Shown: positions 47,483-64,000 of the stretch, in pieces | Layout: every line of letters starts with the position of its first letter | Numbering within the stretch: position 1 is the first letter of the stretch | Assembly (NCBI GenBank): GCA_029246685.1 | Contig: JAQWMR010000003.1 | Location: forward strand, 3,964-67,963 | From: Acidimicrobiales bacterium | Lineage (GTDB): Bacteria; Actinomycetota; Acidimicrobiia; Acidimicrobiales; Aldehydirespiratoraceae | Reading direction: 5' to 3' | Length of the DNA: 64,000 nucleotides | The notes under the pieces: model-generated | Told to the model about the DNA's origin: nothing | What the model saw: only the letters and a program-made list of their open reading frames with translations | Databases searched by the model: none | Position numbers and translations under genes: made by a program

Positions 47483-48249
47483 GCCACGTCGCCCTCGCCT
47501 GGCGGCACAGCATCGAACGACATCCCGCCGTAGGTCTGCCCCGTGGGCTGGAGTTCGATCCGATTGATGTTGACGTGGGCGGGGACGGTGACGGCGTAGT
47601 GGATTGCGTCTGCGACCTCGTCGGCGGTCACCTCCTGCACGCCACTGTCCTTCACTCTCGCCCGCTGCGTGGGATCGCTCACGGCCACGTCGTAGAACTC
47701 AGTCGCGACCCGACCCGGGTTTATCTCGGTGACGCGCACTCCCGTCCCCCGGAGTTCGATGCGGAGGTTCGTGCAGAATCGATGCACCGCTGCCTTGGAC
47801 GCTCCGTAGGTCGCGGACGACAGCGGATACAGGCCGGCCATCGACCCGATGTTGACGATGTGGCCGCTCCGTCGCTCGATCATCGGCGGCAGGAAGACCT
47901 TCGTGGCGACCATCAACGCGGTCACGTTCGTGTCGATCGTCTGGGTGATGTCCTCGATCGTCCCCTCGGCGAGCGGCGCATCCAGCCGTCCGAGCCCGGC
48001 GTTGTTCACGAGCAGGTCGACAGGCCCGACGGAGCCCGCGAGCGCCACAAGCGCGTCAGAGTCCGTGACGTCGAGGGAATGAATGACACAACCCGTCTCT
48101 TCGGCGAGCTGTCCGAGCCGATCACCGCGTCGGGCCACGGCATGGATCCGCACTCCCTCTGCGGCCAGCCGACGTAAGGTCGCCGCTCCGATTCCGCTGG
48201 ACGCACCCGTCACGAGGGCGGACGACGGTAGAGATCCGGAGCCACTCAT
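47479..48249 (-). CDS. SDR oxidoreductase (YdfG-like NADP-dependent)
   Basis: [30 protein letters not shown]. Confidence 0.92.
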
Positions 48250-48392
48250 TTCTCGCTCGCCATACGCGTTCCCATCCCTCTCGGCTGCAGGCAGACAACG
48301 CTACCTCGCCGGACCAGCGGCCCAAGACGACAGTCAAGTCCGGACTGGCCTACCTTTCCCTCGCTGACCCCTGCACGACAAGAGACAAAACG

Positions 48393-50639
48393 ATGGCGTT
48401 TCTCGACTCAGAAATCGAAGCAACAGAAGCCTGGTTCGGCTCGGATCGCTTCTCGGAGATCACCCGACTCTTCACGGCCCGTCAGGTTGTCGAACAGCGG
48501 GGAACCATCGACCAGGACTACACCGTTGCCCGGGTCGCAGCCGAGCGATTCCACACGCGGCTACGCGAGCTTCGTTCGCAGGGCAAGAGCATCACCACGT
48601 ACGGCCCCTACTCCCCCGGCCAGGCCGTCGCCATGAAGCGATCGGGCATCGAAGGGATCTACCTGGGCGGCTGGGCCACATCGGCCAAGGGCTCGATGTC
48701 GGAAGATCCGGGCGCTGACCTCGCGAGCTACCCGCTGAGCGCAGTGCCGGATGAGGCGGCCCCCATCGTCCGGGCCCTTCTCGCGGCCGACAAGAACCAG
48801 CGTTTCGCCCGAACCCGCATGAGCGAGGAGCAGCGAGACAGCACCCCTGAGGTCGACTTCCTGCCGTACATCATCGCCGATGCCGACACCGGCCACGGCG
48901 GCGACGGACACGTCCGCAATCTCGTGCGCCGCTTCGTCGAGGTCGGGGTCCCCGGGTACCACATCGAGGACCAGAAGCCGGGCGTGAAGAAGTGCGGTCA
49001 CCAGGGCGGCAAGGTGCTCGTCCCGGTCGATGAGCAGATCAAGCGCCTCAACGCGGCAAGGTTCCAGCTCGACATCATGACCGTCGGCGGCATCATCGTG
49101 GCTCGCACCGACGCGGAGGCGGCGACACTGCTCGACGGCTCCGGCGACGAACGCGACCAAGCCTTCATTCTCGGCGCCACCAAGCTCGACGTTCCGAGCT
49201 ACAAGAACGCCTTCCTGGCGATCATGGAGAGCCTGAACAGCGCCGGCGTCTCCGATCTCAACGGCCATCTGCTCTACGGCATCCCGGACGACCAGAAGGC
49301 CGAGGCGATCGCGTGGATCAAGTCGAACGGTCTCAACGCCAACATCGCCGACGCTGCCGCGGCGGTCGGCGCCGGCACCCTCACCGCCGAGCAGGCGCTC
49401 GACACCGTGGGCGATGCCTTCGTCGACGCCTGGCAGTCGGCAGCCGGCCTCATGACCTACCGCGAAGCCGTCGCCGAGGCGATGGCGTTCCGCGCCGAGG
49501 AGGGCGTCGAACTCTCGATGACCCTCGATGAATGGGACGCCTTCTCCGAGCCCGCCTCCTGGCACGTCGCCCAGGCCAAGGCCGATGAGATGGGCCTCGA
49601 TGTCCACTGGGACGCTCGAATCGCAAAGACGCCCGAGGGCTACTACCAGATCCGAGGCGGCATCCCGTTCGCCATCGCCAAGTCGCTCGCGGTCGCTCCG
49701 TTCTGCGACATCATCTGGATGGAAACGAAGACTGCCGACCTCGAGGACGCAAAGGTGTTCGCCGAGGCCATCAAGGCCGTGTACCCCGACAAGATGATGG
49801 CCTACAACCTGTCGCCGTCCTTCAACTGGGACACCACGGGCATGACCGATGACGAGATGCGGGCGTTCCCAGCTGAGATCGGCAAGCTCGGATTCGTGTT
49901 CAACTTCATCACGTACGGCGGCCATCAGATCGACGGCCTCGCGAGCGAAGAGTTCTCCGCCTCGCTGCAGGAAGACGGCATGTTGGCCTTGGCCCGGCTC
50001 CAGCGGAAGTTCCGCTTGGTGGAGTCCCCGTACGCGACCCCGCAGACACTCGTCGGCGGGCCCCGCCTCGATGCCGCCCTCATGGGCTCGTCCGGACGCA
50101 CCGCCACCACCAAGGCCATGGGCAAGGGTTCCACCCAGTTCCAGCACCTGGTGCAGACCGAAGTGCCGCCGCGGCTGCTCGAGGAGTGGCTCGCCGAGTG
50201 GGCCGGAGCCCACGGCGTCGATGCCGCATTGTCCGTGCAGTTGCGCCCCCACACCCCGGGCTCAGAGATCCTCGAGCTCCAGGTCAACGGGGCCGATGAG
50301 ACCTTCGCCAACGTGGTGTTCTCCGTCATCCACGATCGTCGGAACCGTCCGATCCTGCTGGTGCGCGACCAGAACAACCATCGTCAAGAGATGCGCCGCA
50401 AGCGGCTCATGACGCTGATGCACCTGTTCCTGATCCATCGCTACAAGATCGCCGCGATCCACTTCCTCAGCCCCACGGACGACAACCACAAGCAGGCAGA
50501 GGGCATGCGGAACAACGGCATCTTCGGAAATGTCACCGATGAGGTGGGCGAGATCATCGTCGCCGAAGTCAGCGAGACCGACGTCGGACCGCTCCTGGGC
50601 GAGGACCGCAGCGCGCTCTCATCGTTCATCGCGGTTTGA
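48393..50639 (+). CDS. aceA: Isocitrate lyase, long ICL2 type
   Basis: [39 protein letters not shown]; 748 aa with internal insertion and C-terminal extension. Confidence 0.95.
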
Positions 50640-50640
50640 G

Positions 50641-50667
50641 CGCTCCCGCGGTGTGGACCGCGGTGCG
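50641..50667. terminator. GC-rich hairpin after aceA
   Basis: CCGCGGT-GTGG-ACCGCGG (50646-50663) between convergent genes; no clear U tract. Confidence 0.5.
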
Positions 50668-50693
50668 TTCGTGTGCCGTGGTGGTCCGGGTCG

Positions 50694-51066
50694 TCAGGCC
50701 GGCACACCGCCGGCAACCACCGAGCGGTACATCACCCGACGTTCCGAGTAGTCGCGGATCGGGCTGTGCATGACCGAGCGGTTGTCCCAGATGACGAGGT
50801 CACCGACCTCCCACGAATGTTGGCAGGTGAACTCCGGGCGTGTGCCGTGCAGCACAGCACGAAGAATGATGTTGCGTCCGGCCGCCTCGTCCATCCCGTC
50901 GATCTCCTTCGTGAAGGGGTCGTTCACATACAGCGCCTTGCGACCGGTCTCGTCGTGGGTCCGTATGGCGGGATGCAAATTGACCGGCATGTCCGGGCCG
51001 AAGTTCTTGCCGGAGTGCCACGCCTTCGCTTCATCGAGCTGCGAGCGCAACGCCTCGGGCAGCGTA
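50694..51066 (-). pseudogene. TauD/TfdA Fe/2OG dioxygenase, C-terminal half only
   Basis: HPAIRTHDETGRKALYVN, HSWEVGDLVIWDNRSVMH, R.MYR; HxD half and start missing. Confidence 0.88.
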
Positions 51067-51617
51067 AGGTCGCGTCGCAGCCGATGAGATCCGGCTCGGC
51101 GCGCACGACGAGTCGGGCCGGCGTGACGCTGGTGCCGGATCACCGGGCCCTGTTCACGCGCCTCACAACGCTCGAGAACCTCCGCGTCGCCGACCCGTCG
51201 GGTGGCAAGGGCGTCGAGGACATGCTCGACCTCTTTCCCCCGCTCCGAACGAAAGCTGGCGTGGCGGCGGGAAAGCTCTCCGGAGGAGAGCAGTAGATGC
51301 TGGCGCTCGCGCGGGCCCTAGTGCAGCGTCCGCAGGTGCTCTTGATCGACGAGATGAGCATGGGCCTCGCACCGCTGATCGTCGAGTCCCTCATCGGGGC
51401 GATCCGCAGCTACGCATCTGCCGCCGGAGCTGCGGTGGTCCTCGTCGAACAGCACGTTCCAGTCGCCCTCGTGGCCTCCGACCGCGTGCTCGTGATGGTT
51501 CACGGCGACATCGTTCTCGACGGCGCGCCAGAAGATGCCGGCGCCCATCCCGAACTCGAGTCCCTGTACCTCGGCGGTGCCCGTCCGGAATCGTCACCCA
51601 GTGACACAACATCCTGA
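51066..51617 (+). pseudogene. LivF-like ABC ATPase, 5'-truncated with internal TAG
   Basis: LVPD.RALF..LT..ENL, LSGGEQ*MLALARAL (TAG 51294-51296), IDEMSMGLAP, VEQ; no Walker A. Confidence 0.88.
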
Positions 51618-51685
51618 GTTGCCCAGACGCGCAACCGTGGTCAGTCCCTGATGCGGGACAGGAACCTGCTCAGAACAGCGGAATC

Positions 51686-51736
51686 GTTGTGAGATTCACA
51701 ACAGCGAGTGGACGCTATAGGACAGCTTTCAAACCC
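51686..51736. repeat. Degenerate copy of the tRNA-Val 3' end plus flanking hairpin (putative distal att site)
   Basis: 51687-51723 matches 59717-59753 at 24/37 ungapped, core CGAGTGG, followed by TCAAACCC vs TCGAACCC. Confidence 0.7.
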
Positions 51737-51841
51737 TAAACTGCCTGTTCACAGCGTTGCGGCCTCTAGGGATCGCGCCCAAAGCGGCAGATGAACCACG
51801 TTGGGTTACGACGACACCGCTCGGAGCACTGGGTTCTGACG

Positions 51842-54106
51842 CTACTGGCGCGACCACTCGCGCCTCGCAGTGGCCTCGTCCTGAGTCGCGTCACGACCAC
51901 CGGCGAGTTGGATGGTGACGTCGTGGAGGGTGCCGCTGAAGGCGAAGGGAGCTGAGTATCGGTCCGAGACGGCCGAGCCGTGATCCTCGCCGACGCTGGC
52001 GCCGGTCGAGGTGAATGTCGACAGGTAGAGCGGGATCGTCGCTCGTCCACACGTGCTCCCGTCGATCGACAGTTCGACCCGGCCCGCCGAGACGTCTCGC
52101 TCCAGGCGCACCGCGAGCGTGCAGTCACCGGTCGGCACGTCGATGCTCGACTCCACGATGGTGTGGTCACCGAACGCGTTGTAGTCGACGACGAGACGCC
52201 TGTTCTGCACGAAGACGGACAACCCGCAGTTCTCGTTGCCGGTGGCGATCAACACGCCGTGGTCGTCGGCCGCGCTGGTGACGCGAGCGCTGATGTCGAC
52301 GACGGTGTCGGTGAGCGACGCAGCCGTTCTCGTCGGGATCGGCGTCATCGGCGGTCGGTAGGTGTAGCGGCGGGTGGGCCGGTGGACCTCGTGGTCGCCG
52401 ATCCGGGGGATGAACAGCTCGAGGCGGCGCTCGTCGAGCGGCAACACGCCGTGACGTTCCGCTTCCTGCCACCAGAGGTCGATCAGCTCGGCCAGACGAT
52501 CCGGATCACGCTCAGCAAGGTCGTTGCACTCCGACGGATCGGCCGAGAGGTCGTAGAGCTCCCAACGGTCGTCGTCGAAATCGGTGCCGGGGAGATGCCG
52601 GGTGACTGCCTTCCACGACACGCCATCGAGTTCGGTGACCAACGCCCGGTTTCCGCCGAACTCGAAGTACTGCAGCGTGTTGGTCGCCGGCGCATCGGCA
52701 TCATCGAGCACCGACGCGAACGAGTGCCCGGTCACCGGCATCTGCTCGACGCCCCGATATGTCTCGGGCGGTGCGACGCCCAGCAACTCGTAGATCGTCG
52801 GCACGATGTCGGAGACGTAGGCGAACTGATTCCGCTTCGTCCCGGCCTGTTCGTCGCCGAGGCCGGCGGGCCAGTGCACGACCAACGGCACGTGCACCCC
52901 GCCCTCGTGGGTGAGCGTCTTGTACCAACGGAACGGCGAGTTGCCGCACTGGGCCCAACCCCACGGATAGTTGGTGTGACTGCGGGGACTGCCGATGTCG
53001 TCGATCCGCTCGATCGCTTCGTCGGGCGACTCCTTGATGCCTTGGAAATGCTTCATCTCGTGCATCGTTCCGGCCGCACCTCCCTCCTGGGAGGCGCCGT
53101 TGTCGGACAAGAGCACCAGGATCGTGTTGTCCAATTCCCCCATGGCCCGAAGCCCATCGACGAACCGGCCGATCTGGTCGTCGGTGTGGTCGAGAAACGC
53201 TGCGAACGCCTCTTGCAGGCGAGCGGCGAGCCGCTGCTGATTGTCGGAAAGGTCGTCCCATGGCTCGACGCCCGGGTTGCGGGGCGCAAGGGTCGTGTCG
53301 GAGTCGATCACGCCCAGCTCGACCTGGCGCTCGAACCAGCGCTGCCGTACGACATCCCAGCCCTCGTCGTAGCGACCCCGGTACTTGTCGAGATACTCCT
53401 GGGGCGCCTGGTGCGGGGCGTGTGTCGCGCCGAACGGCAGATAGGCGAAGAACGGGCGATCGGGGCGCACGCTCTTGTTGTCGTTGATCATCAGCAAGAG
53501 CTGGTCGACCAGGTCTTCGGAGAGGTGGTAGCCCTCCTCGGGGGTCGCCGGCGGATCGATGTGCGAGTTGTCGCGCACGAGCTCCGGGTAGAACTGATCG
53601 GTCTCCCCCGGCAGGAACCCGTAGAAGCGTTCGAAGCCACGACCCAGTGGCCACTGGTCGAACGGGCCCGCCGCAGACACGGCGGTGCCCGGATTGAGGT
53701 GCCACTTGCCGGCACACAACGTGGCATACCCCTGGTCGCGGAGAACCTCGGCCACCGTCGCGGCAGCGTCGGAGATGTGGCCGATCGAGTGGGGAAAGCC
53801 CGTCTCCCAGCCTGCCAGACCCCGCATCCCCACCGCGTGCTGGGACCGGCCGGTCAGAAGGGCCGCTCGGGTCGGCGAACACACCGGTGTCACGTGGAAG
53901 TTCGTGAACTGCACGCCGCCGCCGGCGAGGACGTCGATGTTGGGCGTGTCGATGTCGGATCCGTAGCAGCCGAACTGCGCGAACCCGGTGTCGTCGAGCA
54001 ACACGAACACCACATTCGGCGCACCGTCACCAGGGTGCGGTCGCTCCTCGAAATGCGGCTCCGAATCGGCGAGCGTGCGGCCGATCGTTCCCTTGAAGTC
54101 GGTCAT
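51842..54106 (-). CDS. Arylsulfatase (formylglycine-dependent)
   Basis: LDDTG, CSPTRAALLTG, GKWH, GATHAPH, SDNGAS, C-terminal extension. Confidence 0.96.
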   Translation of the reverse strand: MTDFKGTIGRTLADSEPHFEERPHPGDGAPNVVFVLLDDTGFAQFGCYGSDIDTPNIDVLAGGGVQFTNFHVTPVCSPTRAALLTGRSQHAVGMRGLAGWETGFPHSIGHISDAAATVAEVLRDQGYATLCAGKWHLNPGTAVSAAGPFDQWPLGRGFERFYGFLPGETDQFYPELVRDNSHIDPPATPEEGYHLSEDLVDQLLLMINDNKSVRPDRPFFAYLPFGATHAPHQAPQEYLDKYRGRYDEGWDVVRQRWFERQVELGVIDSDTTLAPRNPGVEPWDDLSDNQQRLAARLQEAFAAFLDHTDDQIGRFVDGLRAMGELDNTILVLLSDNGASQEGGAAGTMHEMKHFQGIKESPDEAIERIDDIGSPRSHTNYPWGWAQCGNSPFRWYKTLTHEGGVHVPLVVHWPAGLGDEQAGTKRNQFAYVSDIVPTIYELLGVAPPETYRGVEQMPVTGHSFASVLDDADAPATNTLQYFEFGGNRALVTELDGVSWKAVTRHLPGTDFDDDRWELYDLSADPSECNDLAERDPDRLAELIDLWWQEAERHGVLPLDERRLELFIPRIGDHEVHRPTRRYTYRPPMTPIPTRTAASLTDTVVDISARVTSAADDHGVLIATGNENCGLSVFVQNRRLVVDYNAFGDHTIVESSIDVPTGDCTLAVRLERDVSAGRVELSIDGSTCGRATIPLYLSTFTSTGASVGEDHGSAVSDRYSAPFAFSGTLHDVTIQLAGGRDATQDEATARREWSRQ

Positions 54107-54133
54107 GTGTACTCCCTGTCTCGGATGGTGATC

Positions 54134-54955
54134 TCAGATGGTGATGGTGGTCAGGTCGTCGCCGATGATCACGTCGCCGTCGTAGTGTGCGGCGGCCCGA
54201 GCGACCCATTCCGGATACTGGTCGGGCGTCGGCGCGGGAACCATGTGGGTCAGGGCAAGCCGCTTGGCTCCCACTCGGGCTGCGGTCTGTGCGGCCTCGA
54301 TGACTCCTGAGTGGTACTCGAGGATGTCCTGCGCCATTTCGCCCGGGAGCAGCTCGACGATGTCGCGGCGCAGGACCGTCTGTACGTACACGTCCGCACC
54401 GTCGGCAAGTTCGTCGACGCCGTCACACGGAATCGTGTCGCCGACCAGCGCCGCCGACGCGCCTTCGTATTCCAGGCGGAACCCGATGGTCGGGCGGACC
54501 GGCGCGTGCATCGTCGCTGCGGTGGTGATGCTCACGTCGCCGATGCGGAACGCATCGCCGGGCTGCAGCTCGGTGACCTCGACCTGCGGGCCTTTCGTGA
54601 GCGGGTCGTGGTGTTCGATGCGGTAGCCGATGTCGTCCTCCAGCGCGTGAAGCTGGCGCTCCACGAAACGGGCCGTACCGATCGGGCCGTAGATCTGGAG
54701 GACCTTCTCCTCTCGGGTTCTGATCCAGTGGGTGGTGATCACGTCGTTGAGGGCACAGATGTGATCGCTGTGCAGGTGCGTGATCAGCACACCGGCCAGG
54801 CGAGCCGGGTCCGATCCGGCGCCCGCCAAACGCATGACGACGCCTCGACCGGCGTCGACGAGGATGTGTGCGTCGCCCGCCTTCACGAGGGTCGAGGGTC
54901 CGGCGCGGTTCGCGTCCGGCAGGGGCGATCCCGTTCCGGTCAGGATGATGTCCAT
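54134..54955 (-). CDS. MBL-fold hydrolase, RNase Z/AtsA-like
   Basis: GTGSPLP, VDAGRG, THLHSDH, HAPV.P, GDT, YHS, LTHMVP. Confidence 0.9.
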   Translation of the reverse strand: MDIILTGTGSPLPDANRAGPSTLVKAGDAHILVDAGRGVVMRLAGAGSDPARLAGVLITHLHSDHICALNDVITTHWIRTREEKVLQIYGPIGTARFVERQLHALEDDIGYRIEHHDPLTKGPQVEVTELQPGDAFRIGDVSITTAATMHAPVRPTIGFRLEYEGASAALVGDTIPCDGVDELADGADVYVQTVLRRDIVELLPGEMAQDILEYHSGVIEAAQTAARVGAKRLALTHMVPAPTPDQYPEWVARAAAHYDGDVIIGDDLTTITI

Positions 54956-54999
54956 CGGTCGTGTGTGTCCTTGATCCCAGCCGGAGGTCCGGCGGCCGC

Positions 55000-55036
55000 T
55001 TGACCGTAGCAAACAATTTGCATACTGTGCGAAATT
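55000..55036 (+). promoter_or_regulatory. SigA-type promoter with overlapping imperfect palindrome (candidate TetR operator)
   Basis: TTGACC (55000-55005) -17 bp- TACTGT (55023-55028); AATTTGCATACTGTGCGAAATT spans the -10. Confidence 0.6.
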
Positions 55037-55057
55037 ACTCTGAAGAAGGTGGTCACG

Positions 55058-56275
55058 ATGAGCGAGCGAGCGAGTGTGGAAGTGACGCCGGGAGTCTGGG
55101 TGTTGGCGGCCCAAGGCAATGCGTTCGCGGTCGAGACTCCCGACGGCGTGGTGCTCGTCGATACAGGCCCTGGCGGCCGCAAGACCGACGAGATGATCGT
55201 CGAGCTGCGGACCCGCACCGACGCCCCCGTCTGGGCGATCTGCTACTCCCACGGACACTTCGGCTACAACTTCGGCGTTCCCCAGTGGCTCGACCACAAC
55301 GCCGAGCGGGGCCATGCGCCGCCTCGACTCATTGCCCACCGCAACCTGCCGCTCCGCTACGCGAGGTACCGGGAGACCGACGGTTACCAGGCCATCCTCA
55401 ACGAGATGCAGTTCCCCGGCATCACGCAGATGTTCACGCCCGAAAAGGTCGACCCGACCGAGACGTTCGACGACCAGATGCTGCTGTGCGAGTCGCCCCG
55501 CGTCGAGCTGCTGTGGACGCCGTCCGAGACCGACGACGCCATCTCGATGTGGCTGCCCGAGACCCGCACGCTCTTCACCGGACCGGCGGTCCCCGCCGAC
55601 TTCATCCCCAACGTCGGCACGCCGCAGCGCTCGCTCCGCCTCACAGGGCGGTGGGCCGACACGCTCGATCGGCTGATCGAGCTGCGCCCCGAAGTGCTCG
55701 TCATCGAGTTCGGCGACCATGTCACCGGCGAGGACCTCATCAACGAGCGACTCACGACAACGGCGCGTGCGCTGCGCTGGCTTCGCGCCGCGGTCGTCGA
55801 CCGGCTCAACCGGGGCCTGAACGAGCGCGAGATCCTCGCTGACCTCGAGTACCCACCCGAGGTGTTCGACTATCCCTGGCTCACCTGGTTCTACGGCAGC
55901 CCAGAGTACATCGTGCGCGATCTCGTGCGTGAGGAGAGCGGCTGGTGGGACAGAAACCCGACCTCGCTGCATCCGTCGCCCCCGGACGAAGTGGCCCGGG
56001 CGACCTTCGATGCCATTGCGGACCCGGACGCGGTGATCGCCCAAGCCGAAGCGTTGGCCGCCGATGGGAACCCGCAACTAGCGATGCATGTCATCGATCT
56101 GGTGGCCCTCGGTCCCGACGAAGAGCCCGCCGTGGTGCGGGCCCGAGCGATCAAGTCCGACCTCTGCCGAGCACGATCCAAGGAGATCGAGCCCGTCCCC
56201 AGCAAAGGCCTCTACAAGTCGAGTGGCATCCGACTCAAGCAGGGGATCATCTCCTGGGAAGGTGTGGTGCAATGA
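55058..56275 (+). CDS. Alkyl-sulfatase (SdsA-like) MBL-fold protein with dimerisation domain; metal motif degenerate
   Basis: VLVDTG, YSHGHFGY, SETDD, PNVGTP...R, YG....IVR, GWWD.NP..L.P. Confidence 0.85.
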   Translation: MSERASVEVTPGVWVLAAQGNAFAVETPDGVVLVDTGPGGRKTDEMIVELRTRTDAPVWAICYSHGHFGYNFGVPQWLDHNAERGHAPPRLIAHRNLPLRYARYRETDGYQAILNEMQFPGITQMFTPEKVDPTETFDDQMLLCESPRVELLWTPSETDDAISMWLPETRTLFTGPAVPADFIPNVGTPQRSLRLTGRWADTLDRLIELRPEVLVIEFGDHVTGEDLINERLTTTARALRWLRAAVVDRLNRGLNEREILADLEYPPEVFDYPWLTWFYGSPEYIVRDLVREESGWWDRNPTSLHPSPPDEVARATFDAIADPDAVIAQAEALAADGNPQLAMHVIDLVALGPDEEPAVVRARAIKSDLCRARSKEIEPVPSKGLYKSSGIRLKQGIISWEGVVQ

Positions 56276-57699
56276 GCGACGAAAGGTCCAGCAACCAGCC
56301 GAATCTGCTGTTTCTCTACGCCGATCAGCATCGAGCCGACGTGTTGGGCTCTGCCGGCAACGCCATCGTCGCCACTCCCCACCTCGACCGACTCGCGGCC
56401 GAGGGGGTCCTCTTCGACCAGGCCTGGACCGAGAGCCCGATCTGCCAGCCGGCCCGAGCGTCGATGCTCACCGGGCGCTACCCGAACGACCATGGCGTGC
56501 TCGGCAACTTCGCGGGCGACTGCCTGCCCGAGTGGGACACCTTCCCTCGCCGCCTACAGGACGCCGGCTACACGACGGCCACCATCGGCAAGACCCACTT
56601 CGACTCGTGGCCCATGACAGCCGAGCCCGGCACCCCTCCTCCGAGCGAGGAGTTCATCGGCAGCTTCGGGTTCGATCACGTCGTCGAGGAGTTCGACCGG
56701 TACGTCCACGTCGGCGACCAGCTGACGCCGTACATGCGCTTTCTGGACGAGCACGGCGAGCTCGAGACGTATCGCGACGTGATCAGGGACAACTTCCGGG
56801 GCGGCGACCGCCACTGGAACGGGGTCACCTCTCCCCTCCCCCAGGAACTCGACCTCACCTGCTTCCTCGCCGACGAAGCGCAGCAGTGGGTCGGCCGCCA
56901 GTCGGGCGACCGACCGTGGATGTTGCACCTGTCGTTCGTGCAGCCCCACGTGCCGTTGATCGGCGACCCCATCTGGGCCGACTACTACGCGGGCGCCCAG
57001 ATCGAACGCACCGCACCGGCGGAGCCCACCGCCGACAACGAGGCCTGGGCCCAGCAGCTCATGTTCATGCGCAATCACTCCCAGAGCCACATGATGAGCG
57101 ACGAGTTCGTGCTCGCCGGCGCCCGCCAGTACTACGCGATGGTGTCGCTGATCGACCAGCGCGTGGGTGACCTGCTCGCCCAGCTCGAGCGAACGGGCCA
57201 GCTCGACAACACCTGGATCGTCTACTGCGCCGACCACGGCGAGATGCTCGGCGACCACGGCGTGATGGCGAAGATGAACTTCTACCGGTCGTCGGTGCGC
57301 GTGCCCCTCATCGTGCGCCCACCCGGCGGGACCGACGGGCGGGTCGAGACCGCGCCGGTTCAGGCGTTCGATGTCGCCGCCACCCTGCTCGACGCCGGCT
57401 CCGCCGCCCCCCTCGACGGCGCACCGGCGCGATCGCTGGTTCCGATGGTTACCGGCGACGGTGTCGCCCGCGAGGCTGCGCTGAGCATGATTCGCATGCG
57501 CCCCGACCTGACGACCTGGCACGCCGTCACCGACGGCGAGTGGCGGGCCACGTTCAGCGCCGACACCGGCGAAGCCGTCGAACTCTTCGATCTGGTCAGC
57601 GATCCGGACGAGGCCGCCAATCGGGTGAGCGACCCGGCTGCGGCCGACGAACTGGCGGGCATGGCCGCGCTGCTCGCCGCGACCCTGGAGGCCGTATGA
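56272..57699 (+). CDS. Sulfatase (formylglycine type, choline-sulfatase-like)
   Basis: YADQHR, TPHLDRLA.EG, CQPARAS.LTG, GKTH, PHVP, ADHGEMLGDHG...K, RVPLI. Confidence 0.93.
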   Translation: MSDERSSNQPNLLFLYADQHRADVLGSAGNAIVATPHLDRLAAEGVLFDQAWTESPICQPARASMLTGRYPNDHGVLGNFAGDCLPEWDTFPRRLQDAGYTTATIGKTHFDSWPMTAEPGTPPPSEEFIGSFGFDHVVEEFDRYVHVGDQLTPYMRFLDEHGELETYRDVIRDNFRGGDRHWNGVTSPLPQELDLTCFLADEAQQWVGRQSGDRPWMLHLSFVQPHVPLIGDPIWADYYAGAQIERTAPAEPTADNEAWAQQLMFMRNHSQSHMMSDEFVLAGARQYYAMVSLIDQRVGDLLAQLERTGQLDNTWIVYCADHGEMLGDHGVMAKMNFYRSSVRVPLIVRPPGGTDGRVETAPVQAFDVAATLLDAGSAAPLDGAPARSLVPMVTGDGVAREAALSMIRMRPDLTTWHAVTDGEWRATFSADTGEAVELFDLVSDPDEAANRVSDPAAADELAGMAALLAATLEAV

Positions 57700-58304
57700 A
57701 CGCGATCCCGATCGACGGCCGCGTGGCCCGAGGCGAGCGAACGCGCCAGGCCGTGGTCGACGCGCTTCTCAGCCTCTACGCCGAGGACAACCTCACCCCC
57801 ACGATCGACGACATCGCCGGGCGGGTGGGAATGACCGCGCGCACGATCTACCACCACTTCGACGACCACGATGCGATCGCAGAGGCGCTGACAGAGCACC
57901 AGCGGCAACAACTCGGGCATCTCACGAAGCTCGAGTTGTCCGGAACCCTCGCCGAACGAATCGACGCGCTGGTCGCCCAGCGAGCCGAGCTCTTCGAGAC
58001 GGTGGCGCCGGTGCGCCGGGCTGCGCTGGCCAACATGCACGCGTCACCGCGGATCCGCAAAGGCCAGGGAAACCTGGCCGCTCGCCTCCGTCGGCAGCTG
58101 ACCCGGACGTTCGAACCCGAGCTCTCGGCCCTCGATCGCAGCACAAAGGCCGAGACCATCGAGCTCCTCGACCTCCACACGAGCTGGGACACCTGGGAGC
58201 GGCTGCGGCGCTGGCAGCGCCTCTCCGTCCCACACAGCCGCGAACTCGTGAACCGACTCGTAACGCAGACCCTCGACACCTCGATCATCGGAGACCCAGA
58301 ATGA
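57696..58304 (+). CDS. TetR/AcrR family transcriptional regulator
   Basis: DGR.ARGERTR, PT..DIA.RVG.T.RTIYHHF; ATGA overlaps on both sides. Confidence 0.93.
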   Translation: MNAIPIDGRVARGERTRQAVVDALLSLYAEDNLTPTIDDIAGRVGMTARTIYHHFDDHDAIAEALTEHQRQQLGHLTKLELSGTLAERIDALVAQRAELFETVAPVRRAALANMHASPRIRKGQGNLAARLRRQLTRTFEPELSALDRSTKAETIELLDLHTSWDTWERLRRWQRLSVPHSRELVNRLVTQTLDTSIIGDPE

Positions 58305-59662
58305 ACCGATCCCGACGCCTCCTCCTCGCCCTCGCGCTCGCCGCGCTCGTCGCCGCGGGGTGCTCGAGCGGGGACAACACCACCGACGTCGCGGACCCGG
58401 ACACAACGACATCGACTCCTGATGCCACCGACACCAGCGCGGTCGACGAGCCGGCTCCCGATGACACAACGGCACCTGACGAAGCGCCGGTCGAACTGAC
58501 CGCGAGTTTCCGCGGTGTCACGGAAGACGTCATCCGGGTCGGGGTCGTGGCGATCGATTTCGACCGACTCGCCGCCGCCGGCGTGGAGATCAACTCGGGC
58601 GACGCGGGCGCCATCTACACCGCCGCGCTCGAGGCCGTCAACGACCGCGGCGGGATCCTAGGACGCCGCCTGGAGATCACCACCGAGACGTACCTTCCCA
58701 TCGGCGGTACGGAGGCCGACGAAGTCTGCCTGCGACTGACCGAGGATGTCGAAGTCTTCGTGGTGGTCGGCGCCATCCGGCTCGATGAGGTGCTCTGCTA
58801 CACGGAAACGCACGACACCGCCGCAGTCACCATCAGCCAGCAGAACCAGGCACGAATCGAACGCTCGAACGCTCCCTACGTGTCGGTTCGAGGCCGCACC
58901 GACACCCGATCCACCGAATGGGTCGACGCCATGGTGGAGGTAGGTGTCTTCGACGGCGAGACCATCGGCGTTTTCGGACTCGCCGACGTCGACGAGGAGC
59001 TCTACTACGAGACCGTTGCGGCCCTCCGCGCCGCGGGAATCGATCCCGTGGACGGTCTGGTCGCCCCGAACGGCGGCGACGTCGTCGCCAATCGAGCCGC
59101 AGCCGAGATCACCCTCGAGAAGCTCCGCGCAGAGGGCGTCACGGTGACCGTCCACGCCAGCTCCATTGCCGATGGCCTCGAGATCGCCGGCAGCATCGAT
59201 TACCAGACGACGTGGCTGCAGAACCCGGCGATCGGCGCCGGATCGCTGACGGCCGGCGGCGTCGACCTCTCCTACGTCGATGGCATGTTGACGTTGATGC
59301 CCACCCCGGTCGGCACGGTCGACCAGTCCGCCATGGCCGACGACCCCGCCGTCGCCGAATGTGTCGCCGTCATCGAAGACCGCACCGACGAGACCGTCGA
59401 CTACGCGCTCGATGCCGAGGAAGGCAACCTCAACCTCGCGATCAACGCGTGCGGCGCCGCCACCATCCTCGAACCCGCTCTGACCGCGGCCGGACCGGTC
59501 CTGACCAACGACTCCTTCGCGGCAGCGCTCGCCGGACTCGGCGAGTTCTCCATGGCCGGATTCCCCTCGGCGTCGCTCGGCCCCGACGACTACGACGCAG
59601 CCGGTGCCGGCCAACTCGCCCGCTTCTCCGCAGCCGAGGAGGCATGGGAATTCGTGGACTGA
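58301..59662 (+). CDS. ABC substrate-binding lipoprotein (Liv-type)
   Basis: Lipobox VAAGC, D/T/P linker, RGVTEDVIRVG, NDRGGILGRRLE. Confidence 0.88.
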   Translation: MNRSRRLLLALALAALVAAGCSSGDNTTDVADPDTTTSTPDATDTSAVDEPAPDDTTAPDEAPVELTASFRGVTEDVIRVGVVAIDFDRLAAAGVEINSGDAGAIYTAALEAVNDRGGILGRRLEITTETYLPIGGTEADEVCLRLTEDVEVFVVVGAIRLDEVLCYTETHDTAAVTISQQNQARIERSNAPYVSVRGRTDTRSTEWVDAMVEVGVFDGETIGVFGLADVDEELYYETVAALRAAGIDPVDGLVAPNGGDVVANRAAAEITLEKLRAEGVTVTVHASSIADGLEIAGSIDYQTTWLQNPAIGAGSLTAGGVDLSYVDGMLTLMPTPVGTVDQSAMADDPAVAECVAVIEDRTDETVDYALDAEEGNLNLAINACGAATILEPALTAAGPVLTNDSFAAALAGLGEFSMAGFPSASLGPDDYDAAGAGQLARFSAAEEAWEFVD

Positions 59663-59738
59663 CTCCTTGCTCGGCCCGGAGATGGACAGACCACGATCGG
59701 GCTTCTTGACCGACCATTGTCGTTTCGACAACGACGAG

Positions 59739-59812
59739 TGGGCGCGGAGGGACTCGAACCCCCGACATCTTCCTTGTAAGGGAAGCGCTCTAGCCAGCTG
59801 AGCTACGCGCCC
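59739..59812 (-). tRNA. tRNA-Val (anticodon TAC), CCA not encoded
   Basis: GGGCGCG TAGCTCAGCTGGCTAGAGC G CTTCC CTTACAA GGAAG ATGTC GGGGG TTCGAGT CCCTC CGCGCCC A; full cloverleaf, 74 nt. Confidence 0.97.
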
Positions 59813-59824
59813 GGAACCTTGAAA

Positions 59825-60265
59825 CTAAAGGGCAGACGGCAGTTTCACCACCTCGGCTAGTTTGGGGTCGATCCCGCGCGAAATCCCGCGCGACATTGCC
59901 GCCATCGCGTTTGCGGCGCTTCGTTCGTTGCCGGGAACGGCCCACGAGTAGCGGGCGAGTGTGATGGCCGGTGTCTTGTGCCCGACCCGTGCCGATACCT
60001 CGGTGACCGGCTCGCCGGCGGCGAGAAGCCACGAGACGTGAGAGTGGCGCAGCCAGTGGAACGTGAACCCGTCGGGCAACCCAGCACGTCTCACGGCCGG
60101 TGCGAGTACGCGGGCTGCGAAGTGGGATCGGCGAAGCATCTTGTCGTTTTCAGACGTGAACAGTAGGCCCAACCCGGCACCGTGAACCCGGCGGGTCCAC
60201 GCGATGTGATCGCGGAGCGTATCGACGACGGCATCGTCGACCGTGATCTCCCGCCGCTCTCGCAG
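59825..60265 (-). pseudogene. Tyrosine integrase, C-terminal catalytic fragment
   Basis: LLFTS, FHWLRHS..SWLL.AG, VS.RVGH, IT..RYS; N-terminal domains and first catalytic Arg missing. Confidence 0.88.
59871..59893. repeat. Two 11-bp direct repeats ATCCCGCGCGA (candidate integrase arm-type sites)
   Basis: Copies at 59871-59881 and 59883-59893 at the integrase 3' end. Confidence 0.6.
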
Positions 60266-60268
60266 GCC

Positions 60269-60577
60269 ATGATCCGCCGATGACTCAAGGCCGACAAGCT
60301 CGAGGCAGCCGAGCGCACCGATGCGGGAGGGAGCATCCCTGCCGCGTCGCTCGTGGCTGAGGGCATCTGGTCCGGCACCACCGACGCCGACGACCAGGAC
60401 GACGACGCACCGCCCGCAGCAGCAACGCCAGACTTGGAAGCCGATCTGGTCGCTATGAGACACCGGGCCGAGCTAGCCGAACAGGACGTCGCCCGCCTGG
60501 AGCAGCACCTGGCCACGGCGACCACCGCAATGCGGATGCTGGAAGCCGGACCGCATCGCCGACGACGCCGGTTCCGA
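60269..60577 (+). pseudogene. Remnant of a plasmid/ICE-type HTH + coiled-coil protein
   Basis: IRR*LKADKLE.AERTDAG.SIPAASLVAEG ... RAELAE..VARLE.HL.....AMRMLEAG..RRRR; TGA at 60281-60283. Confidence 0.6.
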
Positions 60578-61636
60578 TCAGTCCACGAGCACGATTGCGC
60601 GGCCCGTCGTTCGCCGATGAGCCATGTCGTTGATCAGATTCGGAAGGTCGTCGAAGCCGACCGTCGAGCCGATCAGCGGTTTCACTGCGCCTGACCGGAC
60701 GAGTTCCACGATCTTCGCCATGATCTGCTCGCCGAGCGAAGTCGGCGACACGTTCCACCCGAGCGCCGTCTTCATCATGTCGATCATGTCGTCGCCCGCG
60801 TAGTTCAAGAGCACGCCGCAGAGCTTAAAGTTGCCGAGGGCGAGACGGCGGGGCACGACGAAGGGTTCGTCGGCGACGGCCTTGTTGGAGGCGAATCCCA
60901 TCATCACGTAGCGGCCGTTATACGCCGTGCAAGCCATGGACTTCTCCATCACTGCCTCGCCGACATTGTCGAACACGACGTCGACGCCACGGTTGCCGGT
61001 CTCAGCGAGGACCATCTCGGCGAAGTCGGCGTCATTGTAGTTGATCGCCACGTCGGCTCCGAGCGCAAGGCACTGAGCGACCTTCACGTCAGTCCCGGCT
61101 GTCGCGAAGACTCGAGCACCGGCGTTGGCGGCCAACTGCACGGCGGCTGACCCGGAGCCGCCGGCCGCCGCGTGGATGAGGACGCTCTCGCCGGCCTGGA
61201 GATCGGCTCGGTCGAAGAGGCCGAGCCACGCCAGATGGAACGGGAAGTAGAGCGCGGCCGCACCGGGAAGGGCAATGTCGTCGGGCATCTCGAAGACGGC
61301 CGCCGTGGAGCAGATCGCCTGCTCAGCGAACCCGCCGAAGGCGCGACGAGTGGTAGCGACCACTCGCTTCCCAGCCCAGGCCTCGGCATCGGGCCCGCAG
61401 GCGTCGACGATTCCCATGGCCTCCATGCCCGGGCTGTACGGGAACGCCGGCGGCGCCATCATGTTGCCGCCGGTGATGCGTTCGAGATCGTTGAGGTTGA
61501 GCGGGATGGCCTGCACCCGGACTCGCACCTCGTTGGCTTCCGGCTCGGGCACTTCCACCGTCTCGAGCTGGAGGACGTCGAGCGGGTCGCCGTATTCGTG
61601 GACTCGCCATGCCCGCATCGTTGCTGCGTCCGTCAC
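60578..61636 (-). CDS. NADPH:quinone oxidoreductase (zinc-independent MDR)
   Basis: PGMEAMG, GGFAEQ, HAAAGGSGSAAVQLA, GVDVVFDNVG, GFAS. Confidence 0.93.
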   Translation of the reverse strand: MTDAATMRAWRVHEYGDPLDVLQLETVEVPEPEANEVRVRVQAIPLNLNDLERITGGNMMAPPAFPYSPGMEAMGIVDACGPDAEAWAGKRVVATTRRAFGGFAEQAICSTAAVFEMPDDIALPGAAALYFPFHLAWLGLFDRADLQAGESVLIHAAAGGSGSAAVQLAANAGARVFATAGTDVKVAQCLALGADVAINYNDADFAEMVLAETGNRGVDVVFDNVGEAVMEKSMACTAYNGRYVMMGFASNKAVADEPFVVPRRLALGNFKLCGVLLNYAGDDMIDMMKTALGWNVSPTSLGEQIMAKIVELVRSGAVKPLIGSTVGFDDLPNLINDMAHRRTTGRAIVLVD

Positions 61637-61648
61637 CGTCTCTCCCCG

Positions 61649-62824
61649 TCACTCCTCGACCAGTCCGAAGTGGTCAATATAGGTCCGGAACTCCGACCTC
61701 ACGGTCGCAGGGTCGACGCCGAACTCCTCGGGCGAGTAGCGGTGGATGCCATGCTTGCCGGGCGGGTTGTCGTCAATGAAGAAGTTCATCGCGTCGGCGC
61801 CCTCGCCCGTCATCGGCAGGCCGAGCGCCTCGTAGATCTTCTCGACCTCGGTGAACTGATCGGCGATGAAGTCCGGGAAGTACATGTCATAGAAGATCGC
61901 ATCGGGGTACTCGCTGGCCTGGCGAATCTCGATACCCCGGAGCAGGACCCGGCGGAGCCGCTCGATCCAGTCACCGGCCACCTCGAGTGGATCCACATCG
62001 TCGCTGCCGACTCGCCGCACGATCGTGGTCAAGCTCGAGTACGACGTCATCGACTTCACGGGATCGCGGTGGGTGAACACGATCCGGGCGTCGGGGTACG
62101 TCTCCAACAGCCGATCTAGTCCCCACAGGTGCGCGCCGGTCTTGAGCACCCATCGATCACCCGCGTGGCGGGCCTGAAGATGTTGCAGTTGGCGGCGATG
62201 GAAGTCGTAGACCGGGCCGAAGTCCGCCTCGGTGTCGAGCCAGTCCTCGTAGCCGGGAACCCGGAATTGGTTGTGGAACAGAGGCGTACACATCGTCTCC
62301 CCCATCATCACCACACACTCCTGGGTGAGTTGCGGGCCCATCGGGTGGATGGCGTCGAACCCGGGAAGCTGCAGGTCGCGGTCGGGGAAGGTGGCCGCGC
62401 AGTCCGCGATCCGGGAGTCGGTCTTGAACGACGCCGTCTCCGGAGGCGGCGACGGGAACATCACCTCCCAGGTGAGCGGCGCGCGGCTCTGCGAGTCACA
62501 GGCGAGGATGTCGTGGAGGATCGTGGTGCCCGTGCGGGGCATGCCGATGATGAACACCGGCTTCTCAGTCGTCTGCTCGGCGATCTCGGGAAAGCGGCTG
62601 CGGTCGTCGACGTAGCGCAGCCGATTGACCGTGTGGAGCAACATGCGCTCGTTGCTGATCAGCCGGCCAATGTCGTTGAGCCGACCGTCGGCGGCGAGCG
62701 AGTCGACCAGTCGGCCCAGCGGCTCGACGAACGGGCCGTCGCCGAGATCTTCGAGCCCGCCGGCGCGCGCCGTGGCACCGCGCAATACGCCGTCGACACC
62801 GAGGGCCTCGATCTCGTGTCCCAT
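61649..62824 (-). CDS. Sulfotransferase (mycobacterial Stf-like, Sulfotransfer_3)
   Basis: PVFIIGMPRTGTT, WVLK, YPDARIVFTHRDP...S, HRYSPEEFG. Confidence 0.93.
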   Translation of the reverse strand: MGHEIEALGVDGVLRGATARAGGLEDLGDGPFVEPLGRLVDSLAADGRLNDIGRLISNERMLLHTVNRLRYVDDRSRFPEIAEQTTEKPVFIIGMPRTGTTILHDILACDSQSRAPLTWEVMFPSPPPETASFKTDSRIADCAATFPDRDLQLPGFDAIHPMGPQLTQECVVMMGETMCTPLFHNQFRVPGYEDWLDTEADFGPVYDFHRRQLQHLQARHAGDRWVLKTGAHLWGLDRLLETYPDARIVFTHRDPVKSMTSYSSLTTIVRRVGSDDVDPLEVAGDWIERLRRVLLRGIEIRQASEYPDAIFYDMYFPDFIADQFTEVEKIYEALGLPMTGEGADAMNFFIDDNPPGKHGIHRYSPEEFGVDPATVRSEFRTYIDHFGLVEE

Positions 62825-62970
62825 CCGGTCCCCCACCCCTCGTGGCCGTGGCGAAGTGTAGGACTCGACGCCAGGTGAGACGAAAGTACGACGTGTGGCC
62901 GGGATCCATCGCCGCGACGGCCCATGGCACAATGCAGCAGGCTCAGCTTCACCCGAAGGGTTCTCGGACC

Positions 62971-63048
62971 ATGGACGAGCTACCACCGATTCGCTACACG
63001 CTGGCAGGGGAGATCGGCTTCGCGTACCAAGTGGTGGGCGATGGACCG
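62971..63048 (+). pseudogene. N-terminal stub of an alpha/beta-hydrolase-cyclase (LipJ-like) gene
   Basis: MDELPPIRYT..GEI..AYQVVGDGP is the characteristic start; nothing further follows. Confidence 0.65.
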
Positions 63049-63063
63049 ACGACGCCGGGAGAA

Positions 63064-63192
63064 ATGGCGACAGTGCAAGATGCCCCGAGCGTTGCGTGGT
63101 TTCGGCGAGATCTGCGCTTAGCTGACAACCCGGCGTGGGATACAGCCACGGCCGCCCACCGCTCGGTCGTCGCATGCTTCGTGTGGGAACCC
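63064..63192 (+). pseudogene. N-terminal stub of DNA photolyase/cryptochrome
   Basis: VAWFRRDLRLADNPAW...VV.CFVWEP then abrupt loss of similarity. Confidence 0.8.
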
Positions 63193-63275
63193 GCGCCCAC
63201 AGGACCGGCCGGCGACAGCACCGCCCCCGCCACGAGGACGACAAAGACGGTGAATACGGACAGCAGGCGCCTCAT
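63192..63275 (-). pseudogene. Signal-peptide-only stub of a secreted protein
   Basis: MRRLLSVFTVFVVLVAGAVLSPAGPVGA, then the frame runs into antisense photolyase sequence. Confidence 0.55.
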
Positions 63276-63300
63276 GACCGCCGAACGTACCGCTTCACGG

Positions 63301-63822: not shown

Positions 63823-63998
63823 GCCTCCACCCGGATCGCGACCAACTCGGCCAGCAGCGCAGGCGGCGCGGCCACGGGCGCCCGCCGAGCCGTGTGGTCG
63901 ACGATGAACAAGTCGCGGCCGCCGGCATCGACGATCTCCACGCCGGCCTCCAGACAGACCAGCGCTGCGCCGGCGTAATCCCACACGCCGAGCCCGCC
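63819..63998 (-). CDS. Inositol monophosphatase family protein, C-terminal part (5' end outside window)
   Basis: GVWDYAGAALVCLEAG matches the IMPase WDxAA...EAG motif. Confidence 0.8.
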   Translation of the reverse strand, partial: GGLGVWDYAGAALVCLEAGVEIVDAGGRDLFIVDHTARRAPVAAPPALLAELVAIRVEA

Positions 63999-64000
63999 GT

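Follow-up and report, generated by a model that had tools for sequence, protein, structure and literature searches.

Does the 8-kb sulfatase gene cluster that lies beside a tRNA-Val gene of an Acidimicrobiales bacterium represent a mobile island, and which kind of recombinase would have left its traces there? The question is raised by a 64,000-nt stretch of contig JAQWMR010000003.1 (hereafter the window, meaning the whole stretch of DNA that was analyzed), in which a reading made from the sequence alone had noticed two similar sites, at 51687 and at 59717, and had taken them for the attL and attR of an element that had lost its recombinase. The window was compared with related genomes; G000 denotes the genome holding the window, the other G handles denote related genomes and L handles denote fetched loci. 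We consider it probable that integrative (conjugative or mobilizable) elements driven by a large serine recombinase (LSR) use the 3' end of tRNA-Val as an integration hot spot, and that the window keeps one hybrid junction and one empty attB of this system; the sulfatase unit between them may have been left by accretion.

The features on which the argument turns are the following.

51687..51711, plus strand: putative host-type (B-type) left half, consisting of the hairpin GTTGTGA-gat-TCACAAC and AGCGAGTGG; its motif ends 9 nt before GTGG, as in attB
51708..51713, plus strand: predicted core region, GTGGAC; intact elements share only (G)TGGGC
51708..51794, plus strand: putative relic of an alternative recombinase C-terminal tail, VDAIGQLSNP...*, in the frame of the G006 and G104 LSRs
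51712..51741, plus strand: putative element-type (P-type) right half-site, including TAGGACAGCTTTCAAACCC, with TCAAAC 17 nt past GTGG
59717..59759, plus strand: putative unoccupied attB, consisting of the hairpin TTGTCG-ttt-CGACAA, CGACGAGTGG and the tRNA-Val 3' end with TCGAAC; gaps of 9 and 12 nt
59738..59812, minus strand: tRNA-Val(TAC), the target gene (ARAGORN; Rfam tRNA, 71.3 bits)

Resemblance between the two sites

The two 37-mers at 51687 and 59717 match at 24 of 37 positions without gaps, and their coordinates and hairpins were found to be as originally described. Each site starts with its hairpin, and both stems are perfect. Since tRNA-Val occupies 59738..59812 on the minus strand, the right site overlaps the 3' end of the gene together with 21 nt downstream of it. 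The 5-nt gap reported in the alignment was also confirmed, and corresponds to TCAAAC located 17 nt past GTGG at the left site and TCGAAC located 12 nt past GTGG in tRNA-Val.

This alignment is the best non-self match in the window, the next scores being 23, 23 and 22. A maximum of at least 24/37 was reached in 46 of 200 Markov-1 shuffles of the whole window searched on both strands (7 of 200 for 20 kb on one strand), and the G000 genome holds 18 non-self matches at or above this score, indicating that the alignment by itself is not significant. The resemblance could be accidental, the right hairpin being a trailer or terminator of the tRNA and the left one a similar hairpin that happens to lie in a convergent intergenic region. 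A perfect stem of at least 5 bp occurs in 19.6% of random 38-mers, and an Rfam search of 50000-64000 (E up to 1) returned the tRNA as its sole match and none at the left site, both of which fit this explanation. It is nevertheless already refuted by an exact 19-mer conserved across genera and linked to tRNA-Val, and by an LSR reading frame that continues into the half-site holding this 19-mer, and we give it practically no weight. The statistical case is made by the comparative data, not by the alignment. Equally good matches in shuffled sequence had been named in advance as grounds for rejecting the pair of sites; such matches exist for the 24/37 alignment.

The left site was also considered as a decayed full-length copy of the tRNA. 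This candidate was dropped, as homologues of the site show an element-derived motif and neither ARAGORN nor Rfam sees a tRNA there.

Conservation of the left site and its linkage to tRNA-Val

The 19-mer TAGGACAGCTTTCAAACCC, at 51718-51736 in the left site, occurs once in the window (0.01 copies expected with up to 3 mismatches) and once in the whole G000 genome. When the region 51660-51800 was used to search 107 genomes of the family (G000 and 106 others), homologues were found in 10 of the 106 and in 5 of 11 genera, the genus count including G000's own. Among these homologues the 19-mer is invariant or nearly so and is preceded by a GAGTGG-type core; it is exact in G006, G104, G086, G088, G085, G092, G081 and G123, and the exact match spans five genera. 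A 17-mer version with at most 1 mismatch was present in 21 of 401 genomes of the order (32 copies), against 1 of 401 for a reversed control. Conservation of the 19-mer, unlike the alignment, exceeds chance.

All seven contigs with enough context have a tRNA-Val(tac) at 3.9-20 kb from the motif, and its side and orientation relative to the motif agree with those of the window. The distances are as follows.

G000: 8.0 kb
G004: 7.5 kb
G006: 20 kb
G104: 18 kb
G086: 5 kb
G088: 3.9 kb
G123: 18.5 kb

Four further copies of the 19-mer are on short or split contigs and stand outside this count, and no tRNA was found within 20 kb of a weaker copy, with 1 mismatch, on contig C6 of G009. The linkage of the 19-mer to tRNA-Val and the intact relatives described below support the claim that recombination at an island hot spot beside tRNA-Val did produce the left site as a junction.

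A serine recombinase between the motif and the tRNA

One Resolvase-domain gene is present in each of G006 and G104, inside the island, adjoining the tRNA and pointing at it, and G123 likewise has an LSR between motif and tRNA. The G006 enzyme (575 aa) has the domains Resolvase (PF00239, 1.4e-31), Recombinase (PF07508) and Zn_ribbon_recom (PF13408). Its ORF crosses the junction and ends ...RRGLKYDILVGAEGLEPPTSSL, that of G104 ends ...ILVGVEGLEPPTPSL, and the last 11-13 residues of both enzymes are encoded by antisense tRNA. An ending of this kind had been predicted from a frame of the window that runs through the right core into the antisense strand of the tRNA. This frame does read VGAEGLEPPTSSL, intact relatives end ...ILVGAEGLEPPTSSL or ...ILVGVEGLEPPTPSL, and the frame ends VGAEGLEPPTSSL in G006, G104 and G123. 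The expectation of a serine and not a tyrosine recombinase is likewise borne out by the LSRs of the G006 and G104 islands and by the absence of a Phage_integrase (PF00589) gene from the four islands checked (G004, G006, G104 and G086). The G000 genome gave no Resolvase matches and no LSR remnant by tblastn, in agreement with the proposed loss of the recombinase; a domain-complete enzyme is present in the relatives and absent from G000, and the window holds sites only.

The G006 element, of 20 kb, encodes an ImmA-like peptidase with an XRE-type HTH protein, ArdA, a Replic_Relax protein and a TraG/TrwB-type ATPase, and carries as cargo a type I restriction R subunit (HsdR), YgjP, an OLD-like ATPase with a UvrD helicase, and an IS3 transposase. 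This gene content identifies it as an integrative conjugative or mobilizable element. Over the 8.8 kb nearest the recombinase it has 85% identity to G104, a genome of a different genus.

In the last codons of the LSR gene of G006 (L021:9600-9660), and also in L044, L045, L047 and L052, a hairpin with a 12-bp stem followed by a T-rich run on the tRNA strand was read by eye, so that the element seems to give tRNA-Val a terminator after integration. The CCA of tRNA-Val is supplied by the element.

A different enzyme is suggested by a C-terminal Phage_integrase fragment (Pfam, 1.7e-9) on a 212-aa ORF at 59825-60463, minus strand, which ends 13 nt from the 5' end of tRNA-Val and could be the remnant of the integrase of a tyrosine-type island. 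This fragment, however, is not in the segment between the two sites but beyond the 5' end of the tRNA, in a flank of which part is conserved in G004, G001, G005 and G008 whatever the 3' side. Past its terminal GTGGGC the tRNA body is not repeated directly, and none of the four related islands checked has a tyrosine integrase. Neither of the two marks of an Islander-type island, a displaced 3' tRNA repeat and a tyrosine integrase inside, was found for the segment. We regard a tyrosine-integrase island as highly improbable.

Half-site spacing and identity of the two sites

The tRNA-distal junction of intact elements has the sequence hairpin...CGACGAG TGGGC followed by CTTATAGGACAGCTTTCAAACCCC, and the tRNA-side junction reads ...GGGGTTTGAAATACGACATTTTGG TGGGC followed by the tRNA. 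The sole sequence common to both junctions of the G006 and G104 elements is (G)TGGGC, in keeping with the short core of LSR sites, and the crossover presumably falls within GTGG. Gaps counted from GTGG to the half-site motifs were as follows.

Right half, element-type: TCAAAC, 17 nt, 6 of 6 distal junctions
Right half, host-type: TCGAAC (TTGAAC in G123), 12 nt, 11 of 11 tRNA sides
Left half, element-type: GTTTGA, 14 nt, 5 of 5 occupied junctions
Left half, host-type: hairpin ...TCGA, 8-9 nt, 6 of 6 unoccupied tRNA sites and 3 of 5 scorable distal junctions

The left-half gap of the distal junction is 6 nt in G004 and G088, and in G123 the motif was not found. On both sides the common motif lies 5 nt further out in the element-derived halves, as the P/B spacing of LSR sites requires. 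In their account of the serine-integrase rule, Rutherford et al (PMC3783163) describe a motif for the zinc-ribbon domain that is "shifted by 5 bp toward the center" in attB. The half-site offset observed here is this published attP/attB geometry, and the 5-nt gap between the two window sites is the attP/attB motif offset.

The left site of the window has gaps of 9 and 17 nt (B/P) and the right site has gaps of 9 and 12 nt (B/B). The left site, 51687-51794, is accordingly read as a hybrid junction of host and element followed by the relic of a recombinase tail, and the right site, 59717-59759, as an unoccupied attB and not as the complementary junction. The segment 51687..51711 is a diverged copy of the sequence directly downstream of tRNA-Val. 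The hairpin-type left half adjoins the real tRNA in G000, G004, G005, G001, G088 and G033, the last of which belongs to another family and also has a hairpin-type attB; identity to G005 over 59717-59812 is 97%. We consider the identification of the sites and of the enzyme family very probable.

The proposal that the right site is an attR did not hold. A simple attL/attR pair of one element, with both junctions recombinant and the recombinase gene lost later, would account for the 24/37 match, for the common architecture and orientation of the hairpins and for the lack of a recombinase in the G000 genome. It does not account for the spacing of the right site, which is host-type on both sides and matches the empty sites of relatives. 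The element-type left half, which reads ...GGGGTTTGAA[A/C]TACGACATTT in 5 of 5 occupied tRNA-side junctions, is absent from it, and no LSR pseudogene was found upstream of 59717. Such a pair is therefore very unlikely. Because the right site is host-type on both sides, the similarity of the two sites is not that of the attL and attR of one event; what is similar is a pair of left halves that are both host-type, and a pair of right halves, one element-type and the other host-type, whose common recognition motif is offset by 5 nt.

A decayed copy of the element-type motif and a small palindrome were seen directly left of the attB hairpins in L024 (G033, about 60 nt left of tRNA-Val), G005, G004 and G000 (59690-59716); the copy in G033 reads GGGACAGATTTCAAACC. 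The arrangement looks as if it were a minimal empty unit.

A short reading frame at the left core

The short ORF described at the left core, starting at GTG 51708 (VDAIGQLSNPKLPVHSVAASRDRAQSGR), is indeed open, with its stop at 51792-51794. When the LSR frame of G006 and G104 is followed over the core into the element-type half it reads ...ILVG-LIGQLSNP..., and the window ORF VDAIGQLSNP... is in the same frame, suggesting that 51708-51794 is what remains of the tail with which the recombinase would end when the element is circular. Homology between G000 and G004 stops at 51787 and that between G000 and G009 starts at about 51798, which suggests that the tail relic is a discrete module.

In G004 and G085 the frame continues into a weak HTH region, in which all Pfam HTH matches are below curated cut-offs. 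Three database proteins (P0001-P0003, 176-269 aa), none of them an LSR, also read through the GQLSNP motif into the HTH region. No LSR fused to a GQLSNP tail was found among longer database proteins, a negative that carries little weight where long proteins are concerned. The GQLSNP frame may be a tail or a separate small gene.

Rows of junctions and the proposed mechanism

The tandem accretion that had been proposed from the hairpins finds a counterpart in relatives, where rows of junctions occur. In G086 three junctions stand in a row before attB, each with a different host-type left half; that of the junction closest to the tRNA hardly differs from the attB half. G411, G292 and contig C5 of G033 have three junctions each, in direct order, and a decayed junction lies about 60 nt outside the intact element of G006. 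At L088 (G033:C5:234646-239585) the host-type halves of the three junctions are near-identical. The stretches between junction and tRNA in G004, G088 and G086 are without mobility genes, and their units encode TetR regulators, hydrolases, dehydrogenases, a metallo-beta-lactamase (MBL)-fold protein, an enolase-superfamily enzyme, and SnoaL or cyclase-like proteins. The 80 nt or so that precede the attB hairpin on its left show 82-85% conservation from genus to genus, both when G004 is compared with G088 and when it is compared with the outer flank of the G006 element.

Relatives show that the attP of an intact LSR element lies inside the last codons of the LSR gene, with crossover presumably in the short GTGG core at the tRNA end. 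The frame of the integrated LSR ends in antisense tRNA, and in the circle it would end in the tail from the other end of the element. We propose that units travel with a host-type half at their tRNA-proximal end. In a first step the LSR element would integrate into attB, and in a second it would excise alone by the inner junction, which would regenerate attB and leave the unit in place; alternatively, excision by the outer junction would take the units along. In the window, an LSR element that once lay between the sulfatase unit and the tRNA may have excised by its inner junction and stranded the 8-kb unit. If a helper re-integrated, the outer junction and the tRNA-side junction of the helper could carry the sulfatase unit (cis-mobilization by accretion). 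Every step in this scheme would be a canonical attP x attB or attL x attR reaction. We infer that the sulfatase unit was left by accretion and would be mobilizable only in cis, and we place the accretion history of this particular unit slightly short of an even chance.

The sulfatase unit: cargo or inherited flank

The genes of the unit and its surroundings are the following.

46715-48249, minus strand: SDR1 and SDR2, short-chain dehydrogenases (from the gene order)
48393-50639, plus strand: isocitrate lyase (ICL), 748 aa (from the gene order)
50673-51617, plus strand: two small ORFs, of 207 and 106 aa, that abut each other; their sole AAA_21 match is weak and below its cut-off
51842..54106, minus strand: sulfatase SulfA, 754 aa, first gene of the unit (Pfam Sulfatase, 3.1e-61; 89% aa identity to G009)
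54134..55003, minus strand: MBL-fold gene, start uncertain (Pfam Lactamase_B_2, 4.3e-23)
55049..56275, plus strand: alkyl-sulfatase-like gene with an MBL domain and Alkyl_sulf_dimr (from the domains)
56299..57699, plus strand: second sulfatase, start approximate (Pfam Sulfatase, 2.9e-49)
57696..58304, plus strand: TetR-family regulator, start approximate (Pfam TetR_N, 2.1e-6)
58301..59662, plus strand: 453-aa protein without a Pfam family (Pfam scan), last gene of the unit
60578-61636, minus strand: zinc alcohol dehydrogenase (from the gene order)
61649-63244, minus strand: sulfotransferase (from the gene order)
63301-63999, minus strand: NUDIX hydrolase (from the gene order)

Several results weigh against accretion as the origin of the unit. 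In G009 the same cluster without the MBL gene, 77-89% identical at the amino acid level, is found directly after SDR2 and before tRNA-Val with no junction at its left edge, so that the cluster could be inherited flank and not cargo. On this explanation it was transmitted vertically and never mobile, and the junction is the sole remnant of an LSR element that had entered an older copy of attB, or a pseudo-attB, and was later deleted. GC content is flat over the boundaries (0.63-0.69), the backbone genes to the left at 38871-40140 and 40726-41291 are conserved in G004, G006 and G009, and the unit holds no mobility gene, all in line with an inherited flank. Synteny in relatives with no boundary at the left site had been named as a result that would refute an island; it exists in G009, where SDR2 abuts SulfA, and refutes the island only in part. 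G009 is also without this ICL, which is present in most genomes of the genus, so that a deletion of 48250-51797 in G009 is plausible and the simpler reading. On the other hand, an inherited flank leaves unexplained why G086, G411, G292 and G033 have three junctions in a row, with short metabolic units, the fact that each unit ends in a host-type half regenerating attB, and the 82-85% conservation of right-end sequences between genera. It also does not explain why G000 and G004, whose content between junction and tRNA is unrelated, both have the junction at 7.5-8 kb from the tRNA. We consider an inherited flank unlikely.

Further points against accretion concern its mechanism. The segment 51687-51711 differs from the present attB half at 8 of 25 positions, and its counterpart in G004 and G088 has a spacing of 6 nt, not 9, so that the left junction may have lost its function. 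Among the relatives no gene-bearing unit was found combined with an LSR element into a composite. The G000 genome has no helper LSR, and no directionality factor was recognized. The row at L088 has no tRNA in the 15 kb fetched; rows may occur away from tRNA-Val, or the tRNA may be further off than 15 kb at G033:C5. Canonical attP x attB and attL x attR reactions do not account for how a row acquires its first outer junction, and each recombination step is deduced from sequence.

Contigs of four marine or estuary runs contained no circle or empty-site joint, including the joint between about 51705 and about 59735 that the sequence-only reading had suggested looking for; this says little, as contigs drop rare forms. 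The joints listed for these contigs on 48000-62000 are at other positions, and their sides measure 21-30 letters (60 in one case). Run X1 has a contig ending at 51741 and a second one ending at 59742; the graph may have branched where sequence is shared, and no conclusion was drawn from these ends.

The comparisons of gene content were made by tblastn with defined proteins, as tblastx of the window against the relatives' loci was too noisy. The MBL-fold gene at 54134-55003 is missing from the otherwise collinear clusters of G009 and G001 and has relatives of 76% DNA identity elsewhere in other genomes, suggesting an insertion or deletion within the unit. Paralogues of the 453-aa protein, about 30% identical, are found beside tRNA-Val in G007 and elsewhere in G009.

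The ICL gene shows 84-87% DNA identity in most genomes of the genus, with different neighbors in each; it lies 9 kb from tRNA-Val in G000, 15 kb in G005, 20 kb in G008 and 1.5 Mb in G006. Stretches such as DEMSMGLAPLIVE in the two ORFs at 50673-51617 resemble an ABC-transporter ATPase, which may have been split in two here. Neither of these ORFs (50673-51296 and 51297-51617) is related to the OLD-like nuclease that the G006 element encodes.

On the 5' side of the tRNA the first 40-260 nt are conserved in G004, G001, G005 and G008, and part of 60271-60581 has paralogues at G000:C2:48961 and G000:C10:387995. This side is also variable, since the NUDIX gene is about 120 nt from the tRNA in G104 and 3.5 kb from it in the window. 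The tRNA of G009 (L016, 8076-8150) is called tRNA-Cys(aca) by ARAGORN; its anticodon loop read by eye is TAC (Val). It is 82% identical to the other tRNA-Val genes of the genus and resembles the G104/G088 type, and the G009 locus may have been replaced.

Breadth of the recombinase family and implications

A scan with the G006 LSR as query, one genome per species, gave 38 loci, some of which may come from the same genomes as the G handles, so that these counts are not all independent. According to database labels the closest loci are from Acidimicrobiales, Acidimicrobiia, Candidatus Microthrix metagenome-assembled genomes and one short contig labelled Deltaproteobacteria, and relatives of 44-52% identity are from Saccharibacteria, Lachnospiraceae, Oscillospiraceae and Pseudolysinimonas. 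An antisense tRNA or tmRNA was located at the projected 3' end of the LSR gene at 29 of the 38 loci (Val, Ala, Leu, Lys, Ser and tmRNA), and ORF extension places three more LSR ends (L077, L079 and L080) inside a tRNA. The remaining loci comprise two that run off the contig and four without a tRNA or tmRNA.

A wider proposal, which we hold tentatively and regard as possible rather than probable, is that an LSR family spread over several phyla (by database labels Acidimicrobiia, Saccharibacteria, Lachnospiraceae, Oscillospiraceae and Microbacteriaceae) targets the T-arm/acceptor end of tRNA and tmRNA genes. Its attP would lie in its own last codons, and integration would therefore swap its C-terminal tail. 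At tRNA-Val it would have built an integron-like platform of recombinase-less metabolic units with a P-type half at one end and a B-type half at the other, where excision of the helper regenerates attB, units pile up in rows, and units travel with a helper by canonical LSR reactions only. In the literature searched, which did not extend to supplements that possibly hold tables of att sites, this LSR family at tRNA-Val was not found described.

Islands linked to tRNA genes are routinely credited to tyrosine integrases, and island finders such as Islander are built, according to their description (PMC4383910), on a tyrosine-integrase rule for tRNA islands. Since 32 of the 38 loci of LSR relatives end in antisense tRNA or tmRNA, a sizeable class of tRNA islands may be missed or mis-assigned. 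The LSR attP/attB spacing rule can be read from genome scars and tells a hybrid junction from an empty site without an experiment. If the accretion model is true, ordinary metabolic operons (sulfatases, hydrolases, dehydrogenases) would be portable without a recombinase of their own, and the system would provide genome engineering with natural pairs of LSR and attB whose target, a tRNA end, is near-universal.

Comparison with known systems

The system at tRNA-Val has analogues already in print. SCCmec elements, driven by CcrAB, are LSR-driven tandem cassettes at the conserved 3' end of rlmH, and recombinase-less pseudo-SCC units are mobilized in trans; SCCmec uses two recombinases and a different target.

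The ssrA islands of Dehalococcoides, as described by McMurdie et al in 2011 (PMC3146451), carry DsiB, a CcrB-like serine recombinase, and 15 of them that are without an integration module were proposed to be cis-mobilizable. Both systems consist of serine-recombinase elements at the 3' end of a tRNA or tRNA-like gene, with insertion in the T-loop/acceptor region, and both form tandem rows downstream of the target with metabolic cargo. As far as that description goes, the Dehalococcoides islands have a 20-bp direct repeat of ssrA and the two proteins DsiA and DsiB, whereas here the core is about 4-6 nt and there is a single LSR; the recombinases are likened by description. Unlike those islands, the present system has tRNA-Val as its target, an attP inside the LSR ORF and units that would regenerate a full attB. 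The Islander paper of 2015 (PMC4383910) states that serine integrases are not known to target tRNA genes, a statement to which the published account makes the Dehalococcoides ssrA islands a known exception.

Cis-mobilizable elements (CIMEs) and their site-specific accretion, as presented for ICESt1/ICESt3 of Streptococcus thermophilus by Guedon et al in 2017 (PMC5704250), offer a second parallel. In both cases a recombinase-less unit has att-type sites at its ends. A helper that integrates next to a CIME can be co-excised with it as a composite, and the unit here would be mobilized in a like manner. The unit at 51842-59662, with its sulfatases, MBL-fold proteins, TetR regulator and 453-aa protein, is free of integration and transfer genes, as a CIME is. 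The functional attL and attR that flank a CIME have no equivalent here, where the left end is a putative hybrid junction and the right end a complete attB, as canonical LSR reactions would require. In that account classic CIMEs depend on tyrosine integrases and have attL and attR with identical cores.

Phage Shimadzu of Roseburia intestinalis (bioRxiv 10.1101/575076) is described as having its integration site inside the LSR gene and two integrase forms. The likeness to the elements at tRNA-Val extends to the last residues in which the forms differ (22 aa in Shimadzu) and to a second copy of Shimadzu found inserted in a tRNA, and Roseburia loci L051 and L067 encode 47-49% relatives of the G006 LSR. 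Shimadzu differs in being a phage of a Firmicute for which that report describes no recombinase-less units, and the integrases are likened by description. In streptococcal integrative conjugative elements with a single serine integrase at rumA, as reported by Ambroset et al in 2016 (PMC4701971), the repeat is located in the target gene at one end and in the integrase gene at the other, and the 3' ends are exchanged so that the C-terminus of the integrase changes, much as proposed here. The rumA target, according to that report, is a protein-coding gene altered by insertion, whereas here the tRNA stays intact and the element supplies CCA and a hairpin.

At the level of the sites themselves the comparison is with canonical LSR sites as set out in the Listeria A118-family integrase model of Rutherford et al in 2013 (PMC3783163). 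That model and the sites at tRNA-Val share a motif in attP and attB halves shifted by 5 bp, a short core and hybrid attL and attR. At tRNA-Val, unlike in the canonical sites of that model, attB is the end of a tRNA gene and the host left half varies among hosts.

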